Below are positions 4,932-59,745 of a stretch of DNA of 64,000 nt, in pieces (positions within the stretch are counted from its first letter, which is position 1; each line of letters begins with the position of its first letter). The stretch lies in the NCBI GenBank assembly GCA_040902285.1, contig JBBDXP010000012.1, positions 8,501 through 72,500 of the forward strand. The letters run 5' to 3'. The notes below the pieces were generated by a model. It had not been told where the DNA came from and ran no database searches. It saw only the letters and a list, made by a program, of their open reading frames with translations. The DNA comes from Candidatus Spechtbacterales bacterium. Its GTDB lineage: Bacteria; Patescibacteriota; Minisyncoccia; Spechtbacterales; 2-12-FULL-38-22. Both the position numbers and the translations under genes were made by a program.

Positions 4932-5054
4932 ATGAGTCCCGTTAGTAATTACCCTAACGGGTCTGCCAAACTAAGTACAGTAAATATAGGTAGTTGATTT
5001 ATCTAAATACATATAAATTAAAACTGCGTAAGCAGTAATTACTAACGGGATGAG
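4932..5054 (+). mobile_element. Family-A MITE-like element, copy A1 (about 112-bp core, TIR CCCGTTAGTAATTAC, flanking ATGAG direct repeats); abuts comEC start
   Basis: 5' …ATGAGT|CCCGTTAGTAATTACCCTAACGGG… and 3' …AGTAATTACTAACGGG|ATGAGA. About 97% identical to copy A4 at 52712. Confidence 0.6.
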
Positions 5055-6306
5055 AAAGGAAAATATTTTGGCAATAATGTGCCTTGCTGTTGTGGCGGGG
5101 GCTTTTATTTTTTATAAAGTTCCCCAAAATTCCGCGCCCAAGGAATTTGAAACGGCTTTTGAAGGAAAGATAGTTGAATATCCCGACAAGCGCCCCGATA
5201 AAACAATTTTAATAGTTGAACCTTTGCCGGAACGCGGAAGTGAGACCGTTCGCGTAAGAATAAGCGTTAAAGATGTTAAGGCCGGGTATGCTTACGGAGA
5301 ATATATAAAAGTGACAGGAACCGCAAGAGAGCCAAAAAGTTTCGAAGATTTTAATTGGGCGGGTTATTTGGCAAAAGAAGGAATAGCTTACGAAATGTAT
5401 GACCCTGAAATAGAAAAAACACGCGATTCCCAAAAAGATCTCTTTTATTTCGCCTTTGTTTTACGCGATAAATTGCAAAAAGGAATTGACACATCTCTGC
5501 TTCCTCCGCAAAATTCGCTGTATTCGGCCATGCTGTTGGGTGATAAGAGCCGGTTATCCGCATCCGACAAGGACGGCTTGGCTGGTGCCGGGCTTAGCCA
5601 CATCGCAGCCATAAGCGGACTGCATATAGCGGTTATATCTTCCATGCTGTTCTTTTTGTTTCTTGCTTTGGGAATGTGGCGCCAGCACGCAAGCATTTTA
5701 GTGCTTGTCGTTATGGCGTTTTACATAATAATGATAGGCGCCCCCGCTTCGGCTGTGCGCGCCGGAATAATGGTGGGTATTTTATTCGTGGCTCAATTTA
5801 TTGGAAGGCCGAATTCTTCGTGGCGCGCGCTTTTGGCGGCAGCAGCCGTGATGGTTTTGCTTAATCCGTATATAGCCAGATACGATGTAGGTTTCCAGTT
5901 GTCTTTTTTGGCTGTTGCCGGAATACTTTTATTTTCCGAGCGGATTGAAATATTTTTTAAAAAACTGCAAAAATATTCGGTTGAAATAACAACCGGGCGT
6001 AAAATAACAAAGGACAGAGCCGTCGCGGGCTATATTGCGGAAGGCAAATTCGGTTTTATTTCGGTTATAGCAATGACTTTATCCGCACAGGCCCTTACTT
6101 TTCCCATAATTTTTTATAATTTTGGAAACTTTTCGCTTGTATCTCCGATAACAAATTTGCTTGTGGTTCCGCTTTTGCCATTTGTTTTAATCGCTGGTTT
6201 TGTTTCGGTAATCGGCGGTATGGCGGGGGGAGTTGTGGCAGCCGTTTTAGCGGCACCCGCCTGGGTGTTTTCAAGTTATATTTGGCTTGTGGTTGATTTG
6301 TTTTAA
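5050..6306 (+). CDS. comEC: ComEC/Rec2 DNA internalization channel (DUF4131 plus competence domain); membrane part of a split ComEC
   Basis: Competence-domain motif MLLGDKSRLSASDKDGLAGAGLSHIAAISGLHIAVIS and multiple TM helices. Next ORF encodes the ComEC MBL domain. Confidence 0.75.
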   Translation: MRKENILAIMCLAVVAGAFIFYKVPQNSAPKEFETAFEGKIVEYPDKRPDKTILIVEPLPERGSETVRVRISVKDVKAGYAYGEYIKVTGTAREPKSFEDFNWAGYLAKEGIAYEMYDPEIEKTRDSQKDLFYFAFVLRDKLQKGIDTSLLPPQNSLYSAMLLGDKSRLSASDKDGLAGAGLSHIAAISGLHIAVISSMLFFLFLALGMWRQHASILVLVVMAFYIIMIGAPASAVRAGIMVGILFVAQFIGRPNSSWRALLAAAAVMVLLNPYIARYDVGFQLSFLAVAGILLFSERIEIFFKKLQKYSVEITTGRKITKDRAVAGYIAEGKFGFISVIAMTLSAQALTFPIIFYNFGNFSLVSPITNLLVVPLLPFVLIAGFVSVIGGMAGGVVAAVLAAPAWVFSSYIWLVVDLF

Positions 6307-6309
6307 CTT

Positions 6310-7158
6310 ATGAAAGAAATATTTTCTAAAAAAGAAAAATATATATTATTAACCTTAGGTTTTTTTGCTGTTTTGGTATGTTCGCTTGCCTTTGTATCAG
6401 CGCCGTCGGGCGCGCTCGAAATTCACTTTTTAAACATAGGGCAGGGGGACGCTATTTTTATAAATACTCCAAGCAAAAGACAGGTTTTAATAGACGGAGG
6501 CCGCCCCGATTCTCCTATTTTGGAAAAAATTTCGCAAAATATGCCTTTTTACGACAGAGATATAGATCTTGTTGTGGCAACGCATATGGACGCCGATCAT
6601 ATGGGCGGGCTCATTTCCGTTCTTGAGAATTTTAAAATCGGAGGAATTTTGGTAAGCACCACAAAATCAAATACGGATTTATCCGCAAGGTTTTGGGAAC
6701 TAATCGAGGAAAAGGATGTTCCGATTTATGTTGTAAGAGCCGGAGACATATTTGTTTTAGATAAAGATGTGGAGATGTTGATTGTTTCTCCAACAGAACA
6801 ATTTATAGATACTTCTGGCGACAATGATCTTTCTGTCGTAGTTAAACTTACATATAAAGACGATTCATTTTTATTAACAGGCGATATAGAAAAACACGCT
6901 GAGTATGCTCTTGCCACAGGTAACGTAAATTTAAAAAGCGATGTTTTGAAAGTTGCTCACCACGGGAGCAACACATCAACGGTGCAATACTTTTTAAATA
7001 AAGTAGATCCAGATTTGGCCGTAATACAAGTTGGTGAAAACAGATACGGCCATCCGCACCCCGCGGTTCTGGAAAGAATCTCGGCCGCCGGCGCGAAAAT
7101 TTTGCGCAACGATTTGAACGGCGATATTTCTTTGTATAGCTACGGGGATAGTTTTTGA
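6310..7158 (+). CDS. Metallo-beta-lactamase fold protein corresponding to the ComEC C-terminal domain (separate ORF)
   Basis: MBL motifs HFLNIGQGDAIFI, VATHMDADHMGG and KVAHHGS. N-terminal TM anchor. Starts 4 nt after the comEC stop. Confidence 0.7.
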   Translation: MKEIFSKKEKYILLTLGFFAVLVCSLAFVSAPSGALEIHFLNIGQGDAIFINTPSKRQVLIDGGRPDSPILEKISQNMPFYDRDIDLVVATHMDADHMGGLISVLENFKIGGILVSTTKSNTDLSARFWELIEEKDVPIYVVRAGDIFVLDKDVEMLIVSPTEQFIDTSGDNDLSVVVKLTYKDDSFLLTGDIEKHAEYALATGNVNLKSDVLKVAHHGSNTSTVQYFLNKVDPDLAVIQVGENRYGHPHPAVLERISAAGAKILRNDLNGDISLYSYGDSF

Positions 7159-7197
7159 ATATTGCGCTTCGCAATTCGAAGTGATATTTTATCTATA

Positions 7198-8850: not shown

Positions 8851-9174
8851 GTGTATATGGATTTGTTTAAAAAAGGGGAAAAATATTCGTTTTTTAATCC
8901 AAAGAATGCGCTGTTCGGATTAATATGGGCGGATATTACTCTTTTAATTTTTTTCAGCCTGGCTGAACTGGATTACTATCTACACCGCTTTGTTTATATA
9001 CAAACGGATATTACCCGACCCATACCTCCTTATGTGTTTTGGATTTCTTTTGTGACCTTCATATTACCCCTAATTATTACTGGTAAGAATTGGGGCAAAA
9101 AAAATGCTTTATCTTTATTGGTTTATGAGATCTTGTTTATATTTTTAATTGTTTCGTTTTTAGTCATAGTTTAA
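8851..9174 (+). CDS. Hypothetical small membrane protein
   Basis: 107 aa with 2-3 hydrophobic helices. No recognisable motif. Confidence 0.35.
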   Translation: MYMDLFKKGEKYSFFNPKNALFGLIWADITLLIFFSLAELDYYLHRFVYIQTDITRPIPPYVFWISFVTFILPLIITGKNWGKKNALSLLVYEILFIFLIVSFLVIV

Positions 9175-9180
9175 ATTTTT

Positions 9181-9296
9181 ATGCGTTTAATCCATAAAAA
9201 GATATTAATAGTTATTCTATTTTCGACAGGGCTAGTTTCTCTTTCAGTTTTTGCAGGAAATTCCCTACAATTTCTTGGGAACCGGAAAATATAAAA
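9181..9296 (+). pseudogene. Signal-peptide-encoding 5' segment, out of frame with the downstream 714-aa ORF; likely the frameshifted N-terminus of the same gene
   Basis: ATG 9181 encodes MRLIHKKILIVILFSTGLVSLSVFAGNS… (classic n/h/c signal peptide) then stops at 9296. The 714-aa reading frame is open from 9198 but offset by one nt. Confidence 0.45.
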
Positions 9297-9356
9297 GTTC
9301 ATGTTTTCCCAGGTGGATTAAAAAGTATTGAGGCGACATTCATAAGTTCTAAGGAT

Positions 9357-11501
9357 TTGGAAAATGTTGAATTTAGAATCGCCCCAGAAATAGAACCTTT
9401 TATTGATGTAGAATCGGGCAACCTAGATTTAATACGGGCTGGTGAAGAAAATACAATAATCTTGAGTGTTGCAATGCCGACTGATGCGCCGTTGAGAACT
9501 TTCGATGGCGTTATTCAGATCAATGCTACAGAAAAATTAAGTGCCATAGAAAAATTTATGGGAAGGGTGCTTACAAAAAAAATCGACAAACAAAAACATC
9601 TTGCCAAACCATTGCCCGTGGAAGTTGAGGTAATATCTGCACAGCCAACTCTGGGTTTATTCGAAGAATTTTTAATTGAACAATTTGGTACCCTGACACC
9701 CGAGGTTGATTTTGAGGGAGATGTCTACGAATCAATAGCAACCCCCGAAGATATTATCAGTGGTTTTTCTCAAGGCACCGAAGGCGCTTTTGTGCTTGGT
9801 ATAGGATCAATCAAGTTCCTGGGGCCGTTTGGTGCAAACGAGGAAGCTGTTCTTGGGTCGCATGATTTGTTAACAGAATTGGCAGATCAAGGAGTTATTG
9901 TGGACGATCTAATGGATGCTTTAAAAGATCATGACATGTATATTGAAGGTACGAAAGATGTCTCTGAGCTTCTAATAACCCCAGGCTTAAATGCCGTAAT
10001 ATTTTTCCCCAGAAAGGGTGCACAATTTTTCACCACAACTCCTTATGATGAGAACGGAGATGGTATCACGGATCATTATGTGGTGATACTTGATAATGAT
10101 ACCCATGTGTTGCACAGAGCACATCATGTCAATGCTTTTATAAATCGCAACTTTTTTGTCGGAAATATCTTAAATAATTCATCCAGGACACTTGTTCATG
10201 AACTTTTGCACGCAGTAATTTTTAGAACGAATTGCTTTGTGGGCACCAGAGATGATGAGGAAGTTTTTGTGGAAGATATGCTCAGCGTATTGGATGCTAA
10301 ATTGAGTACCAACACAACATTCTATAACGCACTATTGTCACAAACCCTATCGGATTTTCCTCAAGGGGAAGATTGTTTAGACAGGTTGGGTCTTGAACCA
10401 GTATCCCAACAATGGTCAACTCCCGAAACCGTATCGACAATAACAGGCTCCTTTCCCGACATAGACACAGACCAAAACAATATACCCCACGTTGTATGGT
10501 ATAATTCTACGCCCTCCAGCACTAATATATTTTACAGCAAACAAAACACAGACCGGTCATGGATATCTCCTCAGGACATATCGGGAGTCCTGCATGCCGC
10601 GGGCAACCCCCCGGAACTTACAATAGACATAACGCAAAGCGACAGCGGAAGCATACACGTTGCGTGGTCTGCGGTAGTAGAAGAAAACAACCAAGAAATA
10701 TTTTATTCCAGATACAATGGATCCAGCTGGTCAACTCCTCTGAATGTATCCAACACTTCGGTTAATTCCACCTGGCCCTCTATTACCCTCGACAGCGCCG
10801 GCAACCCTCATATTGTATGGGAGGAGTTCTATGTAAGCGTAACTCCAACAGAGATATATTATACGCAATTCAACGGCAGTTCATGGTCCACTCCTCAAAA
10901 CATATCCAATTCTTCTTCTTTATCCCTCTCTCCCATAATTGCAACGGATAACCAAAATAACCTGCATGCAATATGGTATGAACAGCCCAATCTTCTACGG
11001 GCGGAAGGCCTTTATTATACAAAAAATATCAGCGGGAACTGGGTCTCTCCCGTCAAGATTTTTGATACGCACGGCTCAGGAATTGTTCATCCAGACGCCC
11101 CATCAATTGTCATAGACAAAAATGACAATATTCATCTTGCGTGGACAGATAATATATCCGGCAACGGAGAGATATATTACAGCAAATACGCCAATTCCTC
11201 ATGGCAAGATTCTCAAAATATATCCAACAGCGCCGGTACTTCTTGGGCATCCACAATATCCGTTGATTCCAACGACAATCCCCATATTGCATGGAGTGAC
11301 GGGGTCATAGGGACCATTAATTACAATATAAAATATACAAACTATAATGGTACTCAATGGCAGGACATACAGATCATTTCAAATGTACCGGGCAGGTCTT
11401 TTCAGCCCGAGATGGCAATAGGCACAGACGATGTGGTGCATCTTGTGTGGTTTGATATTCAAAGCGGAACCTACATATTCTATAGCAGCAGAGAACCGTA
11501 A
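9357..11501 (+). CDS. Large probably secreted protein: N-terminal HExxH domain plus C-terminal about 7 repeats of about 45 aa (beta-propeller-like)
   Basis: HELLHAVIF motif. Repeats of the form …SWSTP(L/Q)NISNS…(D/N)NPHI(A/V)W…(E/I)(I/F)YY(S/T). The start is assigned to TTG by the ORF track. The true start is probably upstream (see the 9181 pseudogene entry). Confidence 0.6.
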   Translation: MENVEFRIAPEIEPFIDVESGNLDLIRAGEENTIILSVAMPTDAPLRTFDGVIQINATEKLSAIEKFMGRVLTKKIDKQKHLAKPLPVEVEVISAQPTLGLFEEFLIEQFGTLTPEVDFEGDVYESIATPEDIISGFSQGTEGAFVLGIGSIKFLGPFGANEEAVLGSHDLLTELADQGVIVDDLMDALKDHDMYIEGTKDVSELLITPGLNAVIFFPRKGAQFFTTTPYDENGDGITDHYVVILDNDTHVLHRAHHVNAFINRNFFVGNILNNSSRTLVHELLHAVIFRTNCFVGTRDDEEVFVEDMLSVLDAKLSTNTTFYNALLSQTLSDFPQGEDCLDRLGLEPVSQQWSTPETVSTITGSFPDIDTDQNNIPHVVWYNSTPSSTNIFYSKQNTDRSWISPQDISGVLHAAGNPPELTIDITQSDSGSIHVAWSAVVEENNQEIFYSRYNGSSWSTPLNVSNTSVNSTWPSITLDSAGNPHIVWEEFYVSVTPTEIYYTQFNGSSWSTPQNISNSSSLSLSPIIATDNQNNLHAIWYEQPNLLRAEGLYYTKNISGNWVSPVKIFDTHGSGIVHPDAPSIVIDKNDNIHLAWTDNISGNGEIYYSKYANSSWQDSQNISNSAGTSWASTISVDSNDNPHIAWSDGVIGTINYNIKYTNYNGTQWQDIQIISNVPGRSFQPEMAIGTDDVVHLVWFDIQSGTYIFYSSREP

Positions 11502-11516
11502 ATACTCAAACCCCGA

Positions 11517-11540
11517 ACACGCACATCGATGTGCGTGTTT
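11517..11540 (+). terminator. Perfect palindromic hairpin (aacacgcacatcgatgtgcgtgtt) after the 714-aa gene
   Basis: 11-bp perfect stem. Weak T tract (ttt). Confidence 0.45.
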
Positions 11541-12020
11541 AGAGTTTGAATCTGTGGTTTGCATGATATAATGTGTATGAGGGTTGTATGAATATAAATT
11601 TGGCCTAAAGTAGTTTTCAAAGGGAGTTCTATATTACACAGTTCCTTGGAACAGTGTTGCGGACACCCACTATAGCCCCCCACCGCACATATAAAATCGA
11701 CTTGACGGAGTGAATTTTGATGAATATTCGAGGCGCGAGGAGTGTGGCGATGCCAGAGCATCGCGAGCGACGAGCAACGAAGAAGATTTGCAAAATTCAC
11801 CCGCCCTTCGGGGAACAAAAGAATAAACCGTCTGCTTCTTCATTCCTCCTTGAAGTATATATCTATACTCCTTCGTCGTCATTCATCGCATCCGGTTCAT
11901 TCTTTTGTTCTCAAGGTCCATTTTATATATGCGGTGTGGGGCTCCAATTTTAACCAAATTTCTAACATACTCCCTCAAGATGCGTCCCCCGATAAGTCGG
12001 GGGACTTGTCTAAAGACGGT

Positions 12021-12725
12021 ATGTATAAAAAAGAAAATTTTTCCGTTGTGGCTCTTGGGGGCTCAATTATAATTTCAAGAAAAATACAAACGGGGTACTT
12101 GAGGCGGCTTAGGAATTTTACTCAAAAACGTATAGAGAGCGGAGAGAAATTTATTTTTGTGGTGGGAGGCGGCTCTGTGGCTAGGAATTACCAAAGGGCG
12201 GCTTTTTCAATCGTAAATATTTCTAATGAGGACAAAGATTGGCTCGGAATACATTCCACTCGCCTCAACGCACATCTTTTGCGGACGATATTTAATGGTA
12301 TGGCGTATCCGATCGTTTTGGATGATCCTGAAAAACCGATAACCCAGCGCGATCTTAAAAAATATTCGCTTTTTATAGCTTCCGGATGGCGTCCCGGATG
12401 GAGCACGGATTATATCGCTTTTCGCCTGGCTCATCGTTTTGGCGCGAAGCGGGTAGTGGTGGCCACAAAAATTTCTAATGTGTATGACGCCGATATACAA
12501 ACGCATAAAAATGCGCGGCCGTTGAAAAGGATCAGCTGGAAAAGATATTCCAAACTTTTGCCGTCTAAAATATGGTATCCGGGAATGGGAAGTCCCGTTG
12601 ATCCCGTGGCAACAGAGTTTGCCGCGAAGAAAAAAATTTCATGCGTTGTTTTACGCGGAACAAATTTAAAAAATCTGAATAGGTTTTTGGACGGCAAAAA
12701 ATTTGAAGGCACGGTAATCAACTGA
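12021..12725 (+). CDS. Amino-acid kinase family protein, UMP kinase (archaeal-type PyrH)-like
   Basis: FSVVALGGSIII, FIFVVGGGSVARNYQ and DWLGIHSTRLNAHLL. About 234 aa from ATG 12021. The ORF-track extension back to 11742 is rejected. Confidence 0.6.
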   Translation: MYKKENFSVVALGGSIIISRKIQTGYLRRLRNFTQKRIESGEKFIFVVGGGSVARNYQRAAFSIVNISNEDKDWLGIHSTRLNAHLLRTIFNGMAYPIVLDDPEKPITQRDLKKYSLFIASGWRPGWSTDYIAFRLAHRFGAKRVVVATKISNVYDADIQTHKNARPLKRISWKRYSKLLPSKIWYPGMGSPVDPVATEFAAKKKISCVVLRGTNLKNLNRFLDGKKFEGTVIN

Positions 12726-12788: not shown

Positions 12789-12912
12789 ATGAATCCCGTT
12801 AGTAATAACCCTAACGGGTTCACTAAACCAAGTGCAACAAAGACAAGTAGTTAATTCGTTTAAATATACATAAATTAAAACTGCGCAAGCAGTAATTACT
12901 AACGGGATGAAT
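12789..12912 (+). mobile_element. Family-A MITE-like element, copy A2; abuts dapB start
   Basis: …catATGAAT|CCCGTTAGTAATAACCCTAACGGG…GCAGTAATTACTAACGGG|ATGAAT atcgcg. The ATGAAT direct repeat is present on both sides. Confidence 0.6.
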
Positions 12913-13641
12913 ATCGCGCTTATAGGATATGGTTCAATGGGCTCTGTTGTGCGGCGAGTGGCGGAAGAAAGAGGACATAAAATTGTCTCAATAATAGATC
13001 CCAAAGCTCCGGAAGCCGCAGCTTTAGTTCCGAATGCCGAGGCTTTGTCGGACGCCGATGTGGCGGTGGATTTTTCGGCGGGCGAGTCGGTTTTGGACAC
13101 CATAAGGATTTGCAAAGAATCAGGGGTTAATTTAGTTGTGGGTACAACGGGGTGGTATGACAAACTTCAGGAAGCAAAAAATTTAGCGGAAGGAATTGGC
13201 TTTCTTTGGTCCTCTAATTTTTCCATAGGAGTAAATATATATTTTAAAGTGGTGGAAGCGGCTGCCAAACAAATGGATAAATTTGATGAATACGATGTGT
13301 GGGGGCACGAGATACACCATTACAATAAAGCGGACAGCCCTTCGGGAACCGCTAAAACCTTGGAAAAAATATTGCTTGATAATATAGAAAGAAAAACCTC
13401 GGCCGTTGAAGATAAGCTGGACCGCAAACGCAAAGACGAAGAAATCCATTTTTCTTCTGTAAGAGGCGGGGCTGTAAACTTTGGCCACACAATAGGATTT
13501 GATTCGGCGGCCGATAGAATTCTAATTACGCATGAAGCAAGAAGCAGAGACGGTTTTGCCTTGGGTGCTGTAAAAGCGGCCGAATGGCTAAAAGGCAAAA
13601 AAGGTTTTTTTGAAATGCAAGATTTTTTAAATAATAATTAA
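12907..13641 (+). CDS. dapB: 4-hydroxy-tetrahydrodipicolinate reductase
   Basis: N-terminal Rossmann fold IALIGYGSMGS and signature EIHHYNKADSPSGTA (E-x-HH-x-x-K-x-D-x-PSGTA). Confidence 0.85.
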   Translation: MNIALIGYGSMGSVVRRVAEERGHKIVSIIDPKAPEAAALVPNAEALSDADVAVDFSAGESVLDTIRICKESGVNLVVGTTGWYDKLQEAKNLAEGIGFLWSSNFSIGVNIYFKVVEAAAKQMDKFDEYDVWGHEIHHYNKADSPSGTAKTLEKILLDNIERKTSAVEDKLDRKRKDEEIHFSSVRGGAVNFGHTIGFDSAADRILITHEARSRDGFALGAVKAAEWLKGKKGFFEMQDFLNNN

Positions 13642-14882: not shown

Positions 14883-16115
14883 ATGAACCAAGATGTAATT
14901 TATTATCCTGAAAGTTCAATAAAAGAGGCGGTGGAGAAATTCGAAACCCCGTTCTTTATTTATGAAGAAAAACGGCTTCGCGAGAACGCAGGCAGGTTTA
15001 GGGATACATTCCGAAAATATTTTCCGTCTTTCCAGCCATTGTTTGCGGTAAAAGCAAACCCAAACCCCGATGTTTTAAAAATAATCGCTGATGAGGGGTT
15101 TTTATTTGACGCTTCAAGCGCGGGCGAGGTTTGGATTTCGCAAAAACTGGGAATTGCCGGCATGCACACGGGAAATTATCTTGGAGCCGATGAACTCAAA
15201 ATGGCAAAAGATGCCGGGTTTACAATAAACTTGGATGACGTTTCTCAACTGGACTTTTTGAAAGAAATAGGCGTACCCGAAAAACTTTCGTTCCGCATAA
15301 ACCCGGGCATGGGAAAAGGAGAATACGAAAGTTTGATAATGGCGGGTCCCGACGCAAAATACGGAATACCTTACGAAAAAGCTGCCGATGCCTACAAAAA
15401 AGCACAGGATATGGGAGCCAAGCATTTTGGCATACACATGATGACCGGAAGTAATGTGCTGGATGAAGGATATTTTCCCGCAATCGTGGGCAGGTTGCTT
15501 GATACTATAGCAAATATAAAGGAAAAAACAGGTATAGAAATAGAGTTTATGAACATAGGGGGAGGATTTGGAGTGCCTTACCGCCCTGAAGAAAAAAGTT
15601 TGGATTTAGAAAGAGTGGCATCGGGAATACGAGAGGCGGTTGATAAAAAATGCAATGATTTACAAATACGCGAGCCGGTTCTTATGGCCGAACCAGGCCG
15701 GTATGTTTGCGCTGATGCCGGTTGGCTTGTTGGCCGTGTGCAGGTTATAAAAGACAGCTACAAAAAATTTGTCGGCATAGACGCGGCAAGCAACGATATG
15801 CCGAGACCCTCAATTTACGGGGCGTACCATCATATTTCTGTTTTGGATGGAGGCGACAAACAAGAAGAATTGGTTTCGGTTGTGGGAACGATTTGCGAAA
15901 ATAATGATCAATTTGGAAAGGACAGAGAGCTGCCGGCATGCAAAAGGGGGGATATTGTAATAATCCATAATTGCGGAGGACACGCCAGGGCAATGGGCCA
16001 CAATTACAATGGAAAATTAAGACACGCTGAGTATTTAATAGAAAAAAACGGAAACCTAAAACAGATAAGGACATCGGAAACCGTAGAAGATCTGTACAGA
16101 GGAACAAATATATGA
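14883..16115 (+). CDS. lysA: PLP-dependent Orn/DAP/Arg decarboxylase family; diaminopimelate decarboxylase by context
   Basis: FAVKANPNPDVLKII (PLP-Lys motif), GGGFGVPY and EPGR. Sits between dapA and the DapL-like aminotransferase. Confidence 0.7.
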   Translation: MNQDVIYYPESSIKEAVEKFETPFFIYEEKRLRENAGRFRDTFRKYFPSFQPLFAVKANPNPDVLKIIADEGFLFDASSAGEVWISQKLGIAGMHTGNYLGADELKMAKDAGFTINLDDVSQLDFLKEIGVPEKLSFRINPGMGKGEYESLIMAGPDAKYGIPYEKAADAYKKAQDMGAKHFGIHMMTGSNVLDEGYFPAIVGRLLDTIANIKEKTGIEIEFMNIGGGFGVPYRPEEKSLDLERVASGIREAVDKKCNDLQIREPVLMAEPGRYVCADAGWLVGRVQVIKDSYKKFVGIDAASNDMPRPSIYGAYHHISVLDGGDKQEELVSVVGTICENNDQFGKDRELPACKRGDIVIIHNCGGHARAMGHNYNGKLRHAEYLIEKNGNLKQIRTSETVEDLYRGTNI

Positions 16116-16236
16116 ATCCCGTTAGTAGTTACCCTAACGGGTCATTCATTGAAATAATATTAAAATTAACAATAATTACCGCTGTAGCATTTTATTGCGA
16201 CAGGACTGCGCAGTAGTAACTACTAACGGGATGAAT
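16112..16236 (+). mobile_element. Family-A MITE-like element, copy A3; inserted at the lysA-stop/dapL-start ATGA overlap
   Basis: …atATGAAT|CCCGTTAGTAGTTAC…GTAACTACTAACGGG|ATGAAT atag. Perfect 15-bp TIR. Removing the element plus one ATGAAT copy restores a 4-nt ATGA stop/start overlap. Confidence 0.65.
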
Positions 16237-25014: not shown

Positions 25015-26208
25015 ATGAAAAAGGCCGTTTTAGCACTATTTTTAATTGTATTTTTGTCCGGCATTATTTGGGCCGGATCTTTTTTTTGGGAAAATTTTAG
25101 GGGAGCCGGGCCTGCGCTTAAACCTCCGCCCGAAGATATAACGGAACTTATTGAGGGTTCCGGAGAAAATAAAACGGATTTCCCGTTATCTTTGCCCGGA
25201 GGTTTTGAAATGTCTGTTTTTGCCGAAGGTTTACCAGGAGTGCGCGTAATTGTGCAGGACGGATTGGGTAATTTTTGGATAAGCCAGCCGTCGCGGGGAG
25301 TTGTTTCTCTTTTAGAGGTTGATGTTAACGGAGAAGTTGCAAGAATAACCCAGCCGTTTAGAGGTTTAAAAAGACCCCACGGACTTGCTATAGATCCTCA
25401 AAACGGAACCATGCTTTATATAGCGGAGGAAGATAAAGTATCGCGAGTGCCTTTGTATACAGACGCGTCTCCGGAAACAGTGGTTAGTTTGCCGACAGGC
25501 GGAGGACATTTTACCAGGACTATTGGATTTGGCCCTGACGACCGGCTGTACATATCGGCCGGTTCCTCATGCAATGTTTGTGTAGAATCGGACGAGAGGC
25601 GGGCGGCCATATATTCAATGGAGAGAGACGGTTCGGATTTTAAAAAGCACGCAGAGGGCCTTCGTAACGCGGTATTTTTCACATGGAGTTATATAGACGG
25701 TAAAATGTGGGCCACAGAAATGGGGCGCGACAATCTTGGAGACGATCTTCCACCCGATGAGATAAATATAATACAGGAGGGCGCTCATTACGGTTGGCCG
25801 TATTGCTACGGCAGGCAAATAAGGGATACAAGTTTTATGTCTGCGAGCGGATTTGATTGTGCCGATACCGAGCCCTCTTACATAGATTTACAGGCGCACT
25901 CAGCTCCTTTGGGTCTTGCTTTTGTTCCGGAAGAGGGCTGGCCCGAGGCAATGTGGTATGACCTTTTGGTCGCGTATCATGGATCATGGAACAGAAGTGA
26001 GCCGACCGGATACAAGATAGCACGCTTTAAGCTGGACGAAAACGGAAATGTGGAAGGCACGGAGGATTTTATCAGTGGGTGGTTGTCTAGTGAGGGCGCT
26101 CTTGGAAGGCCGGTGGGTATTTTAATCCGTCCGGGAGGTATAATGTACATAACGGACGACCACGCGGGACTTGTTTATAAGGTAATATATAATCCTAATG
26201 GGGAGTAA
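25015..26208 (+). CDS. PQQ-dependent sugar dehydrogenase-like (soluble glucose/sorbosone dehydrogenase beta-propeller family)
   Basis: Signal peptide. Motifs PHGLAIDP, GFGPDDRLYIS, HYGWPYCYG and YHGSWNRSEP typical of the SGDH family. Confidence 0.65.
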   Translation: MKKAVLALFLIVFLSGIIWAGSFFWENFRGAGPALKPPPEDITELIEGSGENKTDFPLSLPGGFEMSVFAEGLPGVRVIVQDGLGNFWISQPSRGVVSLLEVDVNGEVARITQPFRGLKRPHGLAIDPQNGTMLYIAEEDKVSRVPLYTDASPETVVSLPTGGGHFTRTIGFGPDDRLYISAGSSCNVCVESDERRAAIYSMERDGSDFKKHAEGLRNAVFFTWSYIDGKMWATEMGRDNLGDDLPPDEINIIQEGAHYGWPYCYGRQIRDTSFMSASGFDCADTEPSYIDLQAHSAPLGLAFVPEEGWPEAMWYDLLVAYHGSWNRSEPTGYKIARFKLDENGNVEGTEDFISGWLSSEGALGRPVGILIRPGGIMYITDDHAGLVYKVIYNPNGE

Positions 26209-31600: not shown

Positions 31601-31856
31601 AACTAATTACAATTTATGTGTTAATTTTTAAAAAAGCAGTTTGCCTGCTTGCCCGGCTGCACTTCGTTTGTCGGAGCGCCGGGGCTTGGCGTCAAGTTGC
31701 TAAATTCGCTTCGCTCATTAAGCACTTCCTGCCCGGCCTCGCCTGTGTCTCCCGCCTGCGCCGAGGCTTCGGCGGGCAGGTCGGCACATGGCTCCGGCTT
31801 TCAAGCCCGGACGCAGGCAAAGCAGTTTGCCTGCTCGCCCGACCGCACTTCGTTTG

Positions 31857-31927
31857 TCGGAGCGCCGGGGCTTGAACCCGGTTCGCATGACCCCCAGCCA
31901 TGCATAATACCCATATACTACGCTCCG
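31857..31927 (-). tRNA. tRNA-Pro (anticodon GGG)
   Basis: Reverse complement folds as a tRNA. Acceptor CGGAGCG/CGCTCCG (C1:G72 as in bacterial tRNA-Pro). U8, A14, GG18-19. Anticodon stem CATGG/TCATG with loop CTGGGGG (U33, anticodon GGG, G37). T-arm CCGGG-TTCAAGC-CCCGG. Discriminator A. CCA not encoded. Confidence 0.7.
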
Positions 31928-46787: not shown

Positions 46788-48077
46788 ATGGGCTGGTACG
46801 AACAATTCAGAGCAATATTCAGAATAAGGGAATTAAGGAACAAAATGCTTTTTGTTCTGGCGGTTTTAGGTGTTTTTCGCGTTGCGGCTGTAATACCCGT
46901 ACCTGGTATAAATACCGAAGAGTTGAGCGCATTTCTGGGCGGTAATCAATTTTTCGGATTTTTGAATATTTTTTCAGGAGGCGCTTTAAGCAATTTATCC
47001 ATTGTAATGCTCGGTCTTGGTCCATACATTACAGCAACCATTACACTGCAGCTTCTTACCATGATATTCCCAAAGTTGAAGGAAATGTACGAAGAGAGCG
47101 GAGAAGAAGGAAAGCAGAAGTTTAACCAATATGGAAGAATGTTTACTGTTCCTTTGGCGGCCCTCCAGGGTTATACATTGATAAAATTATTCCAAAGTCA
47201 GGCCATACTTCCCAATGTTTCTCCTTTGGAAATGATAACTATTCTAGCGACCGTAACAGCGGGAGCGGTTTGGCTAATGTGGCTTGGAGAATTGATAACT
47301 GAAAAAGGAATAGGAAACGGCATATCACTTTTAATATTTGCCGGTATTATATCAAGTTTGCCCATAACCTTGAGAAATGTTGTTGTATCGGCAACACCGG
47401 AAGATGTCCCCGGATATGTGCTTGCGTTTTTGGTAAGCTTATTTATAATTGCGGCTGTTGTGGTGGTTAACGAGGCAAAAAGAAATATTCCCATATCTTA
47501 TGCCAAACAGGTCAGGGGCAATAAGATTTATGGGGGAGCTACCACATATCTTCCCCTCTCGCTTAATCCGGCGGGGGTTATCCCTATTATATTCGCGCTA
47601 TCTCTTATTCTTTTCCCGGGTATAATTGCCGGCTTTTTACAGGGAGTCCAAAATGAATTGGTACAGAGTATCGCCGCCATTTTGAATGGGTTTCAAAATA
47701 ATATAGTTGCATATTCAATAGTGTATTTCCTTATGGTTGTATTTTTCACATATTTTTATACAGCCGTAACGTTTAATCCCGAAACCGTTTCCCAGAATTT
47801 GCAGAAACAAGGCGGGTTTATACCGGGTATCAGGCCAGGCAGACCCACGGCAGAACGGCTTACTTTTATACTTAACAGAACGCTTCTTGTCGGAGCCGTT
47901 TTTCTCGGAGGCATTGCCATAGTGCCGTCGCTTGCCCAGATTTTTGCGGGAGGCGCTGCGGGAGCGGGCAGCTTGTCTTTTGTTATAGGAGGAACCTCCG
48001 TGTTGATAGTTGTATCGGTTGCGCTTGATACCATCCGTCAGATTAAAAGCCAGATAGTAATGAGGCAATACGAGTAG
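46788..48077 (+). CDS. secY: Preprotein translocase subunit SecY
   Basis: 10 TM helices, typical SecY motifs. Position after rplO. Confidence 0.95.
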   Translation: MGWYEQFRAIFRIRELRNKMLFVLAVLGVFRVAAVIPVPGINTEELSAFLGGNQFFGFLNIFSGGALSNLSIVMLGLGPYITATITLQLLTMIFPKLKEMYEESGEEGKQKFNQYGRMFTVPLAALQGYTLIKLFQSQAILPNVSPLEMITILATVTAGAVWLMWLGELITEKGIGNGISLLIFAGIISSLPITLRNVVVSATPEDVPGYVLAFLVSLFIIAAVVVVNEAKRNIPISYAKQVRGNKIYGGATTYLPLSLNPAGVIPIIFALSLILFPGIIAGFLQGVQNELVQSIAAILNGFQNNIVAYSIVYFLMVVFFTYFYTAVTFNPETVSQNLQKQGGFIPGIRPGRPTAERLTFILNRTLLVGAVFLGGIAIVPSLAQIFAGGAAGAGSLSFVIGGTSVLIVVSVALDTIRQIKSQIVMRQYE

Positions 48078-51343: not shown

Positions 51344-51967
51344 ATGGATAATTTGCTGGCATGGCTCGCTTCTTTAATAATCAATACCATAGACCAGATG
51401 GGATACGCGGGTGTTTTTGTACTAATGGCACTAGAGAGCGCCAATATTCCCATACCTTCAGAAATCACGATGACATTTTCAGGTTTTTTGGCATCGCTTG
51501 GTCGGCTTAATTTTTATTGGATAGTTTTTTGGGGCGCGTTAGGCAATCTTATAGGTTCTTTGGCGGGCTATTATATAGGATTTTTCGGGGGGCGCCCTTT
51601 TGTGAAAAAGTATGGAAAGTATATGTTCATGCATGAGCATGATATAGCTATGGCAGAAAACATGTTTGCAAGATACGGAAAATCAATAGCGTTTTTTTCC
51701 AGATTGCTTCCGGTAATCAGGACTTTTATTTCAACTCCTGCCGGAATTGCTAAAATGAATATATGGCAGTTTTCCGTTTATACTTTCGCCGGTTCTTTTA
51801 TCTGGTCTGCCATGTTGGCATATGTCGGATTTTTAGCCGGAGAAAACTGGGATTTTCTTAGTCCTTATTTTAGAAAATTTGACTGGGTCATAATATTGTT
51901 TGGAATTGTTGCCGTTGCGTGGTGGATAAGGAGACACTATAAAATATCTAAAAAATATGGACAATAG
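51344..51967 (+). CDS. DedA/TVP38 family membrane protein
   Basis: GYAGVFVLMALESANIPIPSE…FFGGRPFVKKYGKY…FFSRLLPVIRTFIS. Confidence 0.75.
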   Translation: MDNLLAWLASLIINTIDQMGYAGVFVLMALESANIPIPSEITMTFSGFLASLGRLNFYWIVFWGALGNLIGSLAGYYIGFFGGRPFVKKYGKYMFMHEHDIAMAENMFARYGKSIAFFSRLLPVIRTFISTPAGIAKMNIWQFSVYTFAGSFIWSAMLAYVGFLAGENWDFLSPYFRKFDWVIILFGIVAVAWWIRRHYKISKKYGQ

Positions 51968-52715
51968 AAAAAAATATTTCATCGCAAATTGGAAAATGAA
52001 TCCCGCGTCAGAAAACGACGCCAAGAAACTTGCCCGCAATGTGGTTGCCCTCTTGCGCGCGGTTAAAAAAAGAGGGAATACCCGAATTGTTTTATGTCCT
52101 CCTTTTACGTTCTTACTGCCCGTTGCTTCATTGCTGGGCTATGGCGCGGAATTAGGCGCTCAAAACTGTCATTTCGAGGACTCGGGAGCTTACACAGGGG
52201 AAGTATCGGCAAAAATGCTTAAAAGTTTAAAATGTCGATATGTAATTGTCGGGCATTCGGAGCGCAGAAATTATTTTAACGAGGATTCTAAATTAATAAA
52301 CAAAAAACTTCATTCCGTTTTAAAAAATGGTTTAACGCCGGTTTTGGCCGTGGGAGAAAAAGAAGGAGAATCTGTAAAAGTGATAGAGCGCCAGCTTAAA
52401 GAAGCTCTTGAGGGTGTAAGCGGAGCCAAGGCAAAAAATATTATAATAGCTTACGAACCGGTCTGGGCTATAGGTACGGGAAAATCCGCCACCGCGGATA
52501 ATGCTATGAGCGCCCGGATAATGATAAGAAAGGTGTTGGCGGCTTTTTATCCCAAAACAACGGCAAATAAGATTCCTGTTTTATACGGGGGCAGCACAGA
52601 TAGCAAAAACATAGTCCGTTTTACCAAAGACGCTCAAATGGACGGCGCGCTTGTGGGGGACTCAAGCTTAAACGCAAAAGAATTTATTAAAATGGTTGAA
52701 GAAATAGGAAAATGA
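51957..52715 (+). CDS. tpiA: Triosephosphate isomerase
   Basis: FIANWKMN, VIVGHSERR, AYEPVWAIGTGKSAT. Confidence 0.9.
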   Translation: MDNRKKYFIANWKMNPASENDAKKLARNVVALLRAVKKRGNTRIVLCPPFTFLLPVASLLGYGAELGAQNCHFEDSGAYTGEVSAKMLKSLKCRYVIVGHSERRNYFNEDSKLINKKLHSVLKNGLTPVLAVGEKEGESVKVIERQLKEALEGVSGAKAKNIIIAYEPVWAIGTGKSATADNAMSARIMIRKVLAAFYPKTTANKIPVLYGGSTDSKNIVRFTKDAQMDGALVGDSSLNAKEFIKMVEEIGK

Positions 52716-52836
52716 GTCCCGTTAGTAATTACCCTAACGGGTCTGCTAAACTAAGTACAGTAAATATAGGTAGTTGATTTAGTTAAATACATATAAATTA
52801 AAACTGCGTAAGTAGTAATTACTAACGGGATGAGAT
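52712..52836 (+). mobile_element. Family-A MITE-like element, copy A4; inserted at the tpiA-stop/pgk-start ATGA overlap
   Basis: …gaaaATGAGT|CCCGTTAGTAATTAC…GTAATTACTAACGGG|ATGAGA ttattgg. About 97% identical to A1. Coordinates ±2. Confidence 0.65.
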
Positions 52837-53978
52837 TATTGGAAAATTTAAAAATAGAACCACACACACGGGTTATCTTAAGGACTGATTACAATGTGTC
52901 TGTTGTTAACGGAAAAGTGGAGGATGATTTCAGAATAGAGGCCTCTCTTAAAACCATTGAATACCTGTTGGCCAAGAAAGCAAAAATAATAATAATGTCG
53001 CATATGGGCAGGCCCCGGGGGCGCGACAAGTCCTTAAGTTTGAAGCCAGTTGCCGATCATTTGGAAACCCTTTTAAATAAAAAAATTTTGTTTTTTGCTG
53101 ATGTTGAAACGGCTCAGCATAGCATAGAGGATATGAAGCCGGGGGATATAGCAATGCTCGAAAATCTGCGCTTTTTTCCGGGAGAAGAGGCGTCTGACAA
53201 GCGGTTCGCTAACGAACTTTCAAAACTGGGAGATGTGTATGTTGACGACGCCTTTGCGGTTGCTCATCGCAAACACACTTCCGTTTTTCTGCTTCCCCGG
53301 CTTTTGCCTCCGGCGGCCGGATTTTTAATACAAAAAGAGGTAAATGTTCTGGATGAAATACGCGTGGCGCAAAAACCGCCCGTAGTTTTTATACTCGGCG
53401 GCGCCAAGGTGGAAACAAAGGTAAAGATATTCATTAAGCTTATCCACAAAATAGATGCCATATGTATTGGAGGCCTGCTTGCCAACTCTATTTTGATGAC
53501 TAAAGGCATAGCCATAGGAAAATCTAATTATGAAGATATAGCGCAATATGTTGACGGCATGGATCTCACAGATACCCGCTTGCACCTTCCTTTGGATGTT
53601 GTGGTTTCAAAAGACCCCTCGGGCAAAAGTCCTGCGAGAATAACGGCTGTAGCAAGCGTAAAGGCCGATGAAATGATACTGGATGCCGGTCCCGACACCA
53701 TAAAGTTATTCTCAAAGATAATAAGAACAGCGGGTACTGTTGTTTGGAATGGACCGTTGGGAGTTTTTGAAATAGAAAAATTCAGCAAAGGAACAAGGGA
53801 TCTTGCCAAAGAGTTAAAAAACACAAAAGCGAGAGTTGTTGTCGGCGGGGGAGATATAGTGCGGGCAATACATAAAGTTGGAGCCGAAAAATCCATATAC
53901 TACCAGTCCACCGGAGGCGGGGCCATGCTTGAATATCTGGCCGAAGGAAAACTACCCGCGCTGGATGTCCTTAAATAA
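52830..53978 (+). CDS. pgk: Phosphoglycerate kinase
   Basis: Typical PGK N-terminal (…DYNVSVVNGKVEDDFRIEASLKTI…) and C-terminal GGGA motifs. 382 aa. Confidence 0.9.
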   Translation: MRLLENLKIEPHTRVILRTDYNVSVVNGKVEDDFRIEASLKTIEYLLAKKAKIIIMSHMGRPRGRDKSLSLKPVADHLETLLNKKILFFADVETAQHSIEDMKPGDIAMLENLRFFPGEEASDKRFANELSKLGDVYVDDAFAVAHRKHTSVFLLPRLLPPAAGFLIQKEVNVLDEIRVAQKPPVVFILGGAKVETKVKIFIKLIHKIDAICIGGLLANSILMTKGIAIGKSNYEDIAQYVDGMDLTDTRLHLPLDVVVSKDPSGKSPARITAVASVKADEMILDAGPDTIKLFSKIIRTAGTVVWNGPLGVFEIEKFSKGTRDLAKELKNTKARVVVGGGDIVRAIHKVGAEKSIYYQSTGGGAMLEYLAEGKLPALDVLK

Positions 53979-56899: not shown

Positions 56900-56928
56900 A
56901 TTATACATTATTTTAAACAAGATGTAAA
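56900..56928 (-). promoter_or_regulatory. Candidate rnpB promoter (TTTACA-17 bp-TATAAT on minus strand)
   Basis: Read on the reverse complement. The -10 ends about 7 nt before the P1 5' strand. Confidence 0.5.
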
Positions 56929-56993
56929 GTTGAGAATACAACAGTTTCATTGTATTATGATACCAAATTGTATAATTGTTCTGATTAAAAATA

Positions 56994-58376: not shown

Positions 58377-58390
58377 GCTCGCTCCGCGAA

Positions 58391-58490
58391 CAGTAGGTAG
58401 TAGGTAGAATGTAGTAGGTAGAATGTAGTAGGTAGTAGAAAATCCAAAAATAAAAATTCTACTTACTACCTACTACATACTACTTACTAA
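58391..58490. repeat. AT-rich imperfect palindrome built from three tandem 14-bp units (gtagtaggtagaat) and their inverted copy
   Basis: cagtaggtagtaggtagaatgtagtaggtagaatgtagtaggtagtagaa…ttctacttactacctactacatactacttactaa. A related half-site cactacctactacttact lies at 7998-8015. Confidence 0.5.
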
Positions 58491-58508
58491 TTTTGCGAAG
58501 CAAAAATT

Positions 58509-59615
58509 ATGAAAGTTGCGTTAGTCCACGATTATTTAATCCAATACGGAGGAGCGGAAAGGGTTCTTGAAGAGTTTGCGTATATGTTTCCCAAGGCTCC
58601 TATCTATACATTGGTTTATGATGAAAAAGCGACAGGAAGAGCTTTCAAGGGCCGGGATATACGAACTTCTTTTCTTCAAAAAATCCCGCGCCGCGCATCT
58701 TCTTACAAATTTTTTCCTCTCATTATGCCTATGGCTGTAGAAAGTTTTGATCTTTCGGATTATGACCTTGTGCTTTCCAGTTCAGCCAGTTTCGCCAAAG
58801 GAGTCATAACAAGAGAAAAGTCCACGCACATATCGTATTGCCATAGCCCCATGCGGTATGCCTGGTTGGATTATAAAAAAATAACAGGGGACACTTTGTA
58901 TCCTTCTTATCTGGAAAAATTGATCCCCCTTATAATGCCGTATATGAGGATATGGGACAGACAAAGCGCTCAAAGACCCGACTACATAATAACCAATTCC
59001 AATTTTATACGCAGAAAACTTAAAAAATATTATTCAAGGGATGCAGTCGTTGTATATCCTCCTTTAAACTTCGAAAAATTCTACATATCAGCGCCTAAAG
59101 ATTATTTTTTGGTCGTGGGCCGAATGGTTCCGTACAAAAGATTCGATGTGGCCATAAAAGCGTTCAATGATTTAAAACTTCCGCTAAAAATAATAGGAAC
59201 AGGTCCCGAGTATAAAAAATTAAAATCCATTGCCGGTCCCAATATAGAATTTCTCGGTCTTGTTTCGGAAAAGGATTTGGCCAGGCACTATTCCGAAGCA
59301 AGGGCGTTTGTGTTTCCACAGGAAGAGGATTTTGGCATTACGGCCATTGAAAGCATGGCTTCCGGCAGGCCGGTTATAGCTTACGGCAGCGGAGGGGCCC
59401 TGGAGAGCGTAAAAGAGGGAGAAACAGGTATATTTTTCCAAGAAAGAAGCGCGGAATCCCTTAAAGAGGCAGTTAAAAAATTTGAAAATATGGATTTTGA
59501 CCCACAAAAAATAAGAAAGCATGCTGAAAAATTTGATACAATATACTTTAGACGCCAAATTGCGGATTTTATTTTGCAAAAAATAAAAGAATCAAGAAAA
59601 TTAATAAGAACTTAA
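58509..59615 (+). CDS. GT4 family glycosyltransferase
   Basis: MKVALVHDYLIQYGGAERV… C-terminal GT4 E-x7-E region (FPQEEDFGITAIESMASGRPVIA). Confidence 0.75.
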   Translation: MKVALVHDYLIQYGGAERVLEEFAYMFPKAPIYTLVYDEKATGRAFKGRDIRTSFLQKIPRRASSYKFFPLIMPMAVESFDLSDYDLVLSSSASFAKGVITREKSTHISYCHSPMRYAWLDYKKITGDTLYPSYLEKLIPLIMPYMRIWDRQSAQRPDYIITNSNFIRRKLKKYYSRDAVVVYPPLNFEKFYISAPKDYFLVVGRMVPYKRFDVAIKAFNDLKLPLKIIGTGPEYKKLKSIAGPNIEFLGLVSEKDLARHYSEARAFVFPQEEDFGITAIESMASGRPVIAYGSGGALESVKEGETGIFFQERSAESLKEAVKKFENMDFDPQKIRKHAEKFDTIYFRRQIADFILQKIKESRKLIRT

Positions 59616-59618
59616 GGA

Positions 59619-59745
59619 TTCATCCCGTTAGTGACCGCGGTCACGGTATGTCGCTAAATAGGGATTTGTGAGAAATAAATATTAATTAAATCGTCAGGCG
59701 CGTTCGAGATATTATTGATCGCGACCTGTCACTAACGGGATGAAA
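59619..59745 (+). mobile_element. Family-A MITE-like element, copy A5 (divergent interior; perfect 17-bp TIR TTCATCCCGTTAGTGAC); abuts the GT4 gene start
   Basis: ggaTTCATCCCGTTAGTGACcgcggtcacgg…cctGTCACTAACGGGATGAAaatag. Ends with GGGATGA forming the start codon of the 59740 gene. Confidence 0.55.

Follow-up and report, generated by a model that had tools for sequence, protein, structure and literature searches.

Miniature elements inserted at start codons in a Spechtbacterales genome, probable deletion derivatives of a family of small GIY-YIG mobile elements

We analysed a 64,000-nucleotide stretch of DNA from a Candidatus Spechtbacterales bacterium (assembly GCA_040902285.1, contig JBBDXP010000012.1, positions 8,501 to 72,500 of the forward strand; hereafter the window, whose own numbering is used below) and found five short repeats, w1 to w5, each inserted at the start codon of a host gene. 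With a probability that we put at about 0.78, they are internally deleted, non-autonomous transposable elements of the miniature inverted-repeat kind (MITEs) from a family of tiny GIY-YIG mobile elements that is widespread in the Candidate Phyla Radiation (CPR)/Patescibacteria and inserts at start codons. A first-pass annotation of the window had described the repeats as a non-autonomous inverted-repeat element that preserves both neighbouring reading frames, and this description is supported by empty sites at all five loci and by a covarying target duplication in ~115 related elements.

Five insertions in the window and their empty sites

Direct reading of the window confirmed five repeats on the + strand at the positions first given, each body running from T to CGGG and lying against the ATG of the downstream gene. 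The five copies have one architecture in common, T and then CCCGTTAGT…ACTAACGGG, followed directly by the ATG of a long + strand open reading frame (ORF), and the CTAACGGG at the 3' end of each body abuts the host-gene ATG at 5050, 12907, 16231, 52830 and 59740. Copy size is 112-117 nt (n=5 in 64 kb). Within the window the exact 9-mer CCCGTTAGT is confined to the elements, and since the same architecture also recurs in other genomes and metagenomes, the elements are not a product of chance.

The w1 element (4937-5049, 113 nt, T + CCCGTTAG…CTAACGGG with a 15-bp terminal inverted repeat) lies 5' of a comEC-like gene. Its left ATGAG copy (4932-4936) is the native comEC start codon and opens a 21-codon remnant upstream ORF (uORF; 4932-4997, MSPVSNYPNG…), and its right ATGAG copy (5050-5054) is the working start of the comEC-like ORF (5050-6306). 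The w2 element (12794-12906), 82% identical to w1, lies 5' of dapB; the left ATGAA (12789-12793) opens the remnant uORF 12789-12854 and the right ATGAA (12907-12911) starts dapB (ORF 12907-13641). Between lysA and a dapL-type aminotransferase gene lies w3 (16117-16230), which has only the two ends in common with the other copies, its interior being different, and which carries a compensatory A-T to G-C change in its inverted repeat. The TGA of its left ATGAA (16112-16116) is still the lysA stop (ORF 14883-16115), the same copy opens a uORF (16112-16216), and the right ATGAA (16231-16235) is the start of dapL, whose 391-aa product is identical to P0121. The w4 element (52717-52829) lies between tpiA and pgk and is 97% identical to w1, as the annotation had estimated. 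Here the TGA of the left ATGAG (52712-52716) is still the tpiA stop (ORF 51957-52715), the left copy opens a uORF (52712-52777), and the right ATGAG (52830-52834) is the pgk start (ORF 52830-53978). The w5 element (59623-59739) belongs to a different subfamily (cluster 14, CCCGTTAGTGACCGCGGTC…CGCGACCTGTCACTAACGGG) and lies between two GT4 genes. At its right junction (59739-59742), G 59739 is the last base of the CTAACGGG repeat and is followed by the working GT4 ATG (59740-59742; ORF 59740-60888); the A of this ATG is the terminal base of the element on a symmetric T…A reading and host sequence on the alternative reading.

The first-pass annotation had reported direct repeats at four copies, and we found these on both sides of w1 and w4 (ATGAG) and of w2 and w3 (ATGAAT). 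No direct repeat flanks w5, which has ATTCA followed by T on its left side; the element can be read as inserted into the native start codon, after its A and before its TG. The annotation had also given all five copies the same inverted repeat and the same 5' hairpin, which stands for w1-w4 and not for w5. The terminal inverted repeat is 15 bp long in w1-w4 (with one mismatch in w2) and 12 bp long in w5, where it reads CCCGTTAGTGAC…GTCACTAACGGG, and the 5' hairpin of four copies, CCCGTTAG-n8-CTAACGGG, is replaced in w5 by GTGACCGCGGTCAC.

By its PGK and dapL-type proteins the window belongs to Candidatus Spechtbacteria (CPR/Patescibacteria). The closest other genome, Spechtbacteria RIFCSPLOWO2_01_FULL_43_12 (~81% protein identity), is syntenic across the whole region and is element-free at all five loci. 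Its empty sites at comEC (GGCAATGAGAAAGG), dapB (AAAATGAATTTAGC) and lysA/dapL (ATATGAAAATAG) lie on locus L010, and those at tpiA/pgk (AAAATGAGATTATT) and the second GT4 gene (TAACCATGAAAATAG) on locus L005. The lysA/dapL and tpiA/pgk sites are plain ATGA overlaps, so the stop/start overlaps that the annotation had reconstructed by removing an element with one repeat copy exist as real empty sites in a relative. In a second relative (L162; dapL 75% identity) the lysA/dapL junction was also element-free. The annotation had set its mobile interpretation against a conserved 5' leader without empty sites; the relatives are empty at all five loci, and these clean orthologous loci show that the repeats are insertions and not conserved leaders. 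The copies have the structural features of MITEs, namely terminal inverted repeats, a target duplication with empty sites, and small multi-copy non-coding units. In a short-read assembly of the same organism the Logan contig L009 ends inside w4, as is expected of a dispersed repeat. Two other readings of the flanks were rejected: an inversion, which the ATTCAT flank of w5 might signal, does not fit the intact synteny with the relative, and a 2-bp 'AT' duplication, which suits the repeat-less class, is contradicted by the real empty sites of w1-w4.

The target and the wider family

We scanned the 5'-hairpin pattern over species-representative genomes, where it gave 4 matches, and over the JGI metagenomes, where it gave none, which showed the hairpin to be subfamily-specific. 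With this pattern, the Spechtbacterales metagenome-assembled genome (MAG) HN14.bin.51 was found to hold four copies of the window-type subfamily, all flanked by ATGAAT/ATGAGT … ATGAA/ATGAG, and 'bacterium M50B98' one copy with terminal C…G instead of T…A and a GTGGA repeat. A lone viral match to the hairpin pattern (L012 2211-2234, IMG/VR) was rejected as chance, as it lies inside a GC-rich phage tail-protein ORF encoding LLPPVSYDPNG. The 19 viral matches to the 15-mer were likewise at chance level, none having both ends, and no match to the element was found in plasmid sequences.

A second pattern for the metagenomes consisted of two 9-mers and ATG, with CGGGATG required. It returned 114 stretches, which gave ~115 unique elements after removal of duplicates, with lengths of 103-129 nt and a shorter class of 45-67 nt. 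They form many subfamilies with unrelated interiors, and have only the termini T-CCCGTTAG…CTAACGGG-A in common. Family-wide, 12 bp of the termini are paired, at least 94% of them as Watson-Crick pairs, and positions 10-12 occur with 2-4 pair types that change on both sides (G-C/A-T, then A-T/G-C/T-A/C-G, then T-A/C-G). The outermost bases pair as well, mostly as T·A, as C·G in L001, L082, L095 and L111, and as A·T in L132. Since the inverted repeats covary, they must pair or be read symmetrically.

In 109 of the 115 elements, CTAACGGG is followed directly by an ATG whose ORF has 60 codons or more or continues past the end of the locus, and two of the six exceptions are tandem arrays. The annotation had named ATGAR at translation starts as the target, including ATGA stop/start overlaps. 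Start codons were borne out; overlaps account for only ~10/115 sites, so that the start codon and not the overlap is the target, and flanks such as ATGGA, ATGCGA, GTG and TTG also occur. The commonest left hexamers were ATGAAT (71), ATGAGT (12) and ATGGAT (7). Left positions -6 to -2 covary with right positions +1 to +5 across several subfamilies (ATGGA/ATGGA in 6/7, ATGAG/ATGAG in 7/12), and the repeat is therefore copied from the target, the start codon and 1-3 further bases being duplicated on insertion. The duplicated target is most often ATGAA, and also ATGAG, ATGGA, ATGA or ATGCGA; counting the A, the repeat is usually 5 long, sometimes 4 (ATGA before the T) or 6 (ATGCGA before the T). 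The T beside CCCG is invariant and right position +6 is free, which assigns this T to the element or the junction. The right junction is constant in all elements. About 12 elements, including w5, have no repeat and are read as inserted between the A and the TG of a start codon. At three sites the left copy is GTG or TTG where the right copy is ATG, and at one of these an AGGAGG Shine-Dalgarno sequence precedes the GTG by 6 nt. Such sites suit a symmetric T…A element that duplicates 4 bp and rebuilds the start with its terminal A, the alternative being a later mutation of the left copy.

We also compared this distribution with the sites available. Besides 26 gene starts, the window has ATGRR at 41 intergenic positions that are not starts and at 419 positions within genes. 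If all intragenic insertions were lethal and all intergenic ones harmless, ~39% of the surviving insertions would be expected at starts, against 5/5 in the window and ~95% in the wider set. Among the subsets that carry no ATG constraint (the window, HN14 and extra copies inside loci), ~20/22 copies are at ATG, the exceptions being L136, with a TTGA repeat, and L072. Tolerance alone does not seem to explain the start-codon bias, which would leave recognition of start sites by the machinery or start-site copies being favoured. Upstream of the target ATG, at 6-7 nt, a -10-like TANNNT hexamer such as leaderless genes typically have is enriched, yet it occurs at only ~22% of sites; targeting of leaderless promoters is thus suggestive and was rejected as a general rule.

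Neighbours in tandem arrays have one ATGAAT between them. Such pile-ups at one start codon were seen at L053 1-260, L079 9140-9230, L102 7310-7730 and L132 100-330, and one array consists of a full GIY-YIG element, then a MITE, then the host gene. The regenerated ATGAA is therefore itself a target. In L082 and L095, both with C·G termini, and in L136, which is short and of the T·A type, the flanks are GTTGAC, GTCAAC and TTGA repeats. These resemble -35 hexamers (TTGACA) and not start codons, and may mark a subfamily with a different target.

Coding GIY-YIG elements and their miniature derivatives

Coding relatives of ~290 bp were traced from unpaired ends in the fetched loci and by protein look-ups, and were found in L059 (twice), L102, L002, L146 and L152. 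Inverted repeats of 12-15 bp, (T)CCCGTTAGNNN…NNNCTAACGGG(A), form their ends. In L059 a 291-bp element occurs twice in identical form, each time at a different gene, and L102 has one related copy. These elements start with ATGAAT-CCCGTTAGTGAT, finish with CTATCACTAA(C/T)GGG-ATGA and contain a single 96-codon ORF that begins at the left, host-derived ATG. The left repeat is read as M-N-P-V-S-D, the right repeat as …R-F-L-S-L-T/M-G, and the stop is the TGA inside the rebuilt host ATGA. On the long contigs L146 and L152 the GIY-YIG gene and the host gene downstream of it share exactly ATGA, and one of the two carries a variant repeat, CTCGATAGTG…CACTATCGGG, altered on both sides. The element on L002 (minus strand, ~204-490, flanks ATGAGT and ATGAAT) belongs to HN14.bin.51, the MAG that also holds window-type MITEs.

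The product of the full-length ORF has 94-96 aa and a GIY-YIG domain at residues 11-77 (Pfam PF01541, E=1e-16), and it belongs to the UPF0213/YhbQ/Slx1-like clade. The nearest solved structure is UPF0213 BH0048 (1zg2, E=6e-12), followed by 1ywl (E=0.009), with weaker matches to SLX1 (E=0.007-0.05); the NCBIfam model for group I intron endonucleases scored 21.6 bits against a cut-off of 56. A homologue search gave 1047 proteins, mostly of 94-96 aa, and among the best 120 of these, 31 start with MNPVSD, 25 with MNPVRD (the CCCGTTAGAGAC repeat variant) and 5 with MNPDSD, and 63 end in FLSLTG. The recurrent starts and ends show that the termini of the protein are the repeats. A profile search returned 3110 clusters at 50% identity with E<=1e-10. 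Some cluster representatives are fused to host proteins or contain an in-frame mini-element. Among P0363, P0252, P0373 and P0366, some have a mini-element translated in frame inside or before the GIY-YIG ORF (…PVRG…SNG…), and the others are the nuclease fused to a host protein of 200-600 aa. These cases indicate either miscalled genes or read-through fusions at targets in which ATGA is without its A.

The first-pass annotation had proposed an insertion sequence (IS) with matching ends as the candidate autonomous partner. An IS with a transposase was not what we found: within ~1.1 Mb of fetched loci, these ends enclose no coding sequence other than GIY-YIG ORFs of 94-96 aa that fill the whole element. 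The window itself, as the annotation had stated, holds no transposase, and we found no integrase or other mobilising gene there; the GIY-YIG profile had no match in the window in any of the six frames.

The MITEs keep the ends of these coding elements. The 108-nt MITE of L086/L127 retains the first 58 nt of the full element (MNPVSDNPKFYYVYILRSKK) and its last ~30 nt. In the largest MITE cluster (cluster 21) the 3' end, …GCATTTCCTATCACTAACGGG, equals the 3' coding end of the full element (…KRFLSLTG), and the 3' end of the window subfamily, …ACTGCGTAAGCAGTAATTACTAACGGG, is a palindrome followed by the repeat, the same layout as in …AAGCGCTTCCTATCACTAACGGG. Comparison of the retained ends points clearly to the MITEs being internal-deletion derivatives of full-length GIY-YIG elements.

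The window copies have lost the nuclease. In w1-w4 the left ATG opens no more than a short dead uORF of 21-35 codons (MSPVSNYPNG… or MNPVSN…), whose stop lies 17-55 nt short of the host ATG, and in w5 a left ATG is lacking. Among the uORFs of 90 MITEs, 81 have an internal stop, 8 stop at the ATGA and 1 is fused in frame. As these uORFs stop internally, the host gene would have to initiate at the rebuilt ATG. Most window genes have an A/T-rich upstream sequence and no Shine-Dalgarno sequence, and several have a TATAAT-like hexamer ~7-14 nt from the ATG, which suggests frequent leaderless or Shine-Dalgarno-independent initiation in this genome. Given the general lack of Shine-Dalgarno sequences, loss of the native leader may cost little. 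In-frame read-through and ribosome hopping were both rejected, since the 118-119 nt from ATG to ATG in w1-w4 cannot be divided by 3 and the uORFs contain internal stops.

RNA folding, which the annotation had proposed as a check, gave structures far below shuffled controls (z = -3.5 to -6.7), but the strong fold is the inverted repeat itself, a helix of 13-17 bp whose foot touches both ATGs. A ribosome on the uORF would melt the 5' arm of this helix and could help to expose the host ATG. The annotation had further suggested that the element decouples cistrons as a terminator plus promoter. Promoter and terminator scans gave no conserved sigma-70-like promoter on the + strand of the elements and no U-tract after the 5' hairpin, and both roles were rejected. 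On the minus strand, the 3' hairpin ACTGCTTRCGCAGT followed by TTTAATTTAT was scanned as terminator-like in w1 (5023-5036) and w2 (12880-12893); at 5 bp the site is weak, and the HN14 copies do not conserve it; w4 has a near-identical sequence at 52803-52816, outside the scan. No Rfam family reached its gathering score in the window, the best sub-threshold matches being 17.9 and 12.7 bits against cut-offs of 59.5 and 50.

Proposed mechanism, rival explanations and meaning

The sequences show insertion at a start codon, in which the left copy keeps the upstream signals of the host and becomes the start of the element ORF, and the right copy, flush with the right repeat, remains the start of the host gene. 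For the steps behind this we propose the following course. The nuclease would cut in a staggered way, with the top strand always opened between the A and the TG and the other strand usually 4 nt downstream, and the inverted repeats would define the ends on which the nuclease acts. Coupling of termination and reinitiation at ATGA is an established phenomenon, and because the stop TGA of the full-length ORF overlaps the rebuilt host ATG, the full-length family appears built to keep this coupling; its host gene would be translated in this ordinary way. Behind a MITE the host gene would start independently at the rebuilt ATG, which should be tolerable where Shine-Dalgarno sequences are mostly absent. 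A GIY-YIG copy at another place in the genome would act in trans to move the window MITEs.

Several points weigh against this explanation. We infer from the sequences that the nuclease cuts these sites and mobilises the MITEs; we know of no strand-joining role described for the GIY-YIG domain, so that the integration step would be without precedent, and the ~96-aa protein has no recognisable DNA-binding domain. Among the full-length elements found, none has the exact 15-bp repeat of the window, CCCGTTAGTAATTAC (ends CCCGTTAGTAATTAC…GTAATTACTAACGGG), and the putative GIY-YIG link of the window subfamily rests on the 8-9 nt termini, the target, the junction and the co-occurrence in HN14.bin.51. 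The ~12 elements without duplication, and a repeat length that ranges from 0 to 6, are odd for a fixed staggered cut. The orientation of the bodies is skewed ~113:2 (L042 and L140 versus L032) despite symmetric termini, and we offer no explanation for this. Finally, the CGGGATG requirement biases the metagenome set towards ATG at the right junction.

The classic signature of inverted repeats with a short target duplication could also come from an ordinary MITE moved by an IS transposase of the conventional DDE type, whose recognition sites would be the CCCGTTAG termini, with the GIY-YIG ORFs as cargo or coincidental passengers, and duplications of 4-5 bp are known in several IS families. We consider this improbable, since in the fetched loci only GIY-YIG ORFs are bounded by the ends and their first and last codons are the repeats themselves, the window holds no transposase, and the duplication varies from 0 to 6 while one junction is invariant. 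A cassette moved by a site-specific recombinase is less probable again. Its hypothetical circle junction, CTAACGGG-ATGAAT-CCCGTTAG, would have inverted arms round a 6-bp core like lox or dif and would recombine with ATGAA-like cores; the five cases of mismatched repeats (ATGAG left, ATGAA right) fit the resolution of a heteroduplex, and the invariant T is found on the left only. But no linked integrase was found, a 113-bp double-stranded circle is sterically unlikely, the reverse-oriented copies in L042 and L140 have the same junctions, and the polarity is the opposite of that of integron attC sites, which run RYYYAAC…GTTRRRY and have a linked integrase, whereas the present ends read GTTAG…CTAAC and the window has no integrase.

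The remaining two explanations we hold to be scarcely credible. A 5' leader or cis-regulatory RNA (riboswitch, thermometer or translational operator) common to several genes would account for the fold, in which a long helix has the start codon at its foot, and for the invariant position directly upstream of the ATG. As an origin it is refuted by orthologous loci cleanly without the element in two relatives; moreover the host genes are functionally unrelated, the interiors differ completely between subfamilies with only the termini kept, Rfam gives no match and the strong fold is the repeat. The subterminal hairpins, the strong orientation bias and the near-constant flanking motif recall instead single-strand elements of the IS200/IS605 (PATE) or REPIN/RAYT type, which might insert 3' of a fixed TTCAT on the other strand and so mimic a duplication. 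Elements of that kind lack terminal inverted repeats and duplications, have subterminal hairpins similar to each other, use a fixed target 5' of the left end and depend on a Y1 transposase, and the present elements differ on these points: the flank covaries with the target (ATGGA/ATGGA, ATGAG/ATGAG), unlike a fixed element end, the terminal inverted repeats are true ones, the left and right hairpins are unrelated in sequence, and no Y1 transposase was found in the window or the fetched loci.

Deletion derivatives of a GIY-YIG element therefore remain our preferred explanation, and they can be set beside several known systems. The free-standing GIY-YIG homing endonuclease genes (T-even Seg and Mob, I-TevI/I-BmoI) are likewise selfish units, between host genes or at their edges, whose sole product is a GIY-YIG nuclease, and they depend on a staggered double-strand cut, as the present elements would. 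Their enzymes, however, have 200-270 aa with a separate DNA-binding domain, against 94-96 aa and a closest resemblance to UPF0213/Slx1 here; they enter one cognate allelic site by homologous repair, whereas identical copies of the present element lie at unrelated genes; and they lack the inverted repeats, target duplication and miniature derivatives that the present elements all have. Bacterial MITEs (Correia/NEMIS, RUP, ERIC, bcr1) and the Rickettsia palindromic elements are similar in being multi-copy and non-coding, 45-130 nt long, with inverted repeats, a short duplication and a strong hairpin, and, as with the Rickettsia elements, some copies of the present family lie in frame inside ORFs (P0363 and P0252). 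Known MITEs trace to DDE-type ISs and are mostly intergenic with loose targets such as TA, unlike the present ones, which trace to a GIY-YIG ORF and sit ~95% on start codons. Of the Correia/ERIC-type features, neither an IHF site nor a promoter/terminator module was found in the present elements. The UPF0213/YhbQ (COG2827)/Slx1 proteins give the best sequence match and are similar in size (~100 aa) and in their single GIY-YIG domain, but they are treated as cellular genes of unknown or repair function, and we found no report of them as cargo of repeat-bounded mobile units. Slx1 is a structure-specific nuclease, an activity that would suit hairpin or cruciform ends. The Magnusiomyces mitochondrial 'byp' elements and T4 gene 60 lie inside coding regions and rely on ribosome hopping. 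They too are short mobile inserts with matching flanking codons that leave the host protein intact, but the present insert is at the start codon and the host gene has its own ATG.

GIY-YIG is, to our knowledge, not among the catalytic types of known transposases. Chances are about even that, among prokaryotic transposable elements, the family is a new class, whose sole protein is a minimal Slx1/UPF0213-like GIY-YIG nuclease and whose ORF is co-extensive with the element, the inverted repeats among it. Such an element would lack expression signals of its own, capture the start and promoter of the host and give back a rebuilt start by way of an ATGA overlap, and its start targeting would be built in and not selected. 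In the literature we found no description of GIY-YIG elements with inverted repeats, of start-codon insertion or of CPR MITEs, although coverage was incomplete and an earlier description is possible. A GIY-YIG protein is merely listed among the genes exchanged by Patescibacteria (PMC12455944). The start-codon-capturing GIY-YIG family is apparently large and undescribed.

Other features of the window were also noted. The last ~18 nt of tRNA-Pro (31856-31927, minus strand) with a 38-nt trailer that holds a terminator-like hairpin occur a second time, at 95% identity, 186 nt downstream (copies 31633-31688 and 31819-31874), with a GC-rich filler of ~130 nt between, and this looks like the att-type trace of a small element that was integrated or excised. 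In the fpg-dapB interval (8851-12725), ~3.7 kb are absent from the relative (L010 6905-7178); this segment contains a 107-aa ORF without a family, a 714-aa BNR_4 protein and an amino-acid (aspartate-type) kinase. A non-coding stretch of ~100 nt at ~11600-11740 is conserved with the intergenic region of the relative. A 28-nt motif, GTA(G/T)TTTTCA(A/C)A(G/T)…TATA, occurs three times (11610-11637, 25672-25699 and 47739-47766; 71-79% identity), one copy lying within the conserved stretch upstream of the kinase gene; it could be a common promoter or RNA motif, or chance.

The insertions matter for annotation. Gene callers misplace starts at these sites (for dapL they take a TTG within w3, and pgk loses 3 aa), and they also fuse nuclease and host ORFs or list the nuclease as an ordinary repair gene. 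If the specificity is enzymatic, so small a nuclease, which apparently finds NTG starts, could be of biotechnological interest. The proposed family would account for the abundance, in thousands of clusters, of small 'GIY-YIG nuclease family protein' genes with MNPVSD…FLSLTG ends in CPR/Patescibacteria, and for short-read assemblies of CPR genomes that break at gene starts, such as L009. If the explanation is true, GIY-YIG joins the short list of enzymes that move prokaryotic DNA elements, and the parasitic strategy would be new: an element without a promoter, ribosome-binding site or start codon of its own, which steals the start of its host gene and keeps that gene alive through an ATG(A) regenerated at its own far end.

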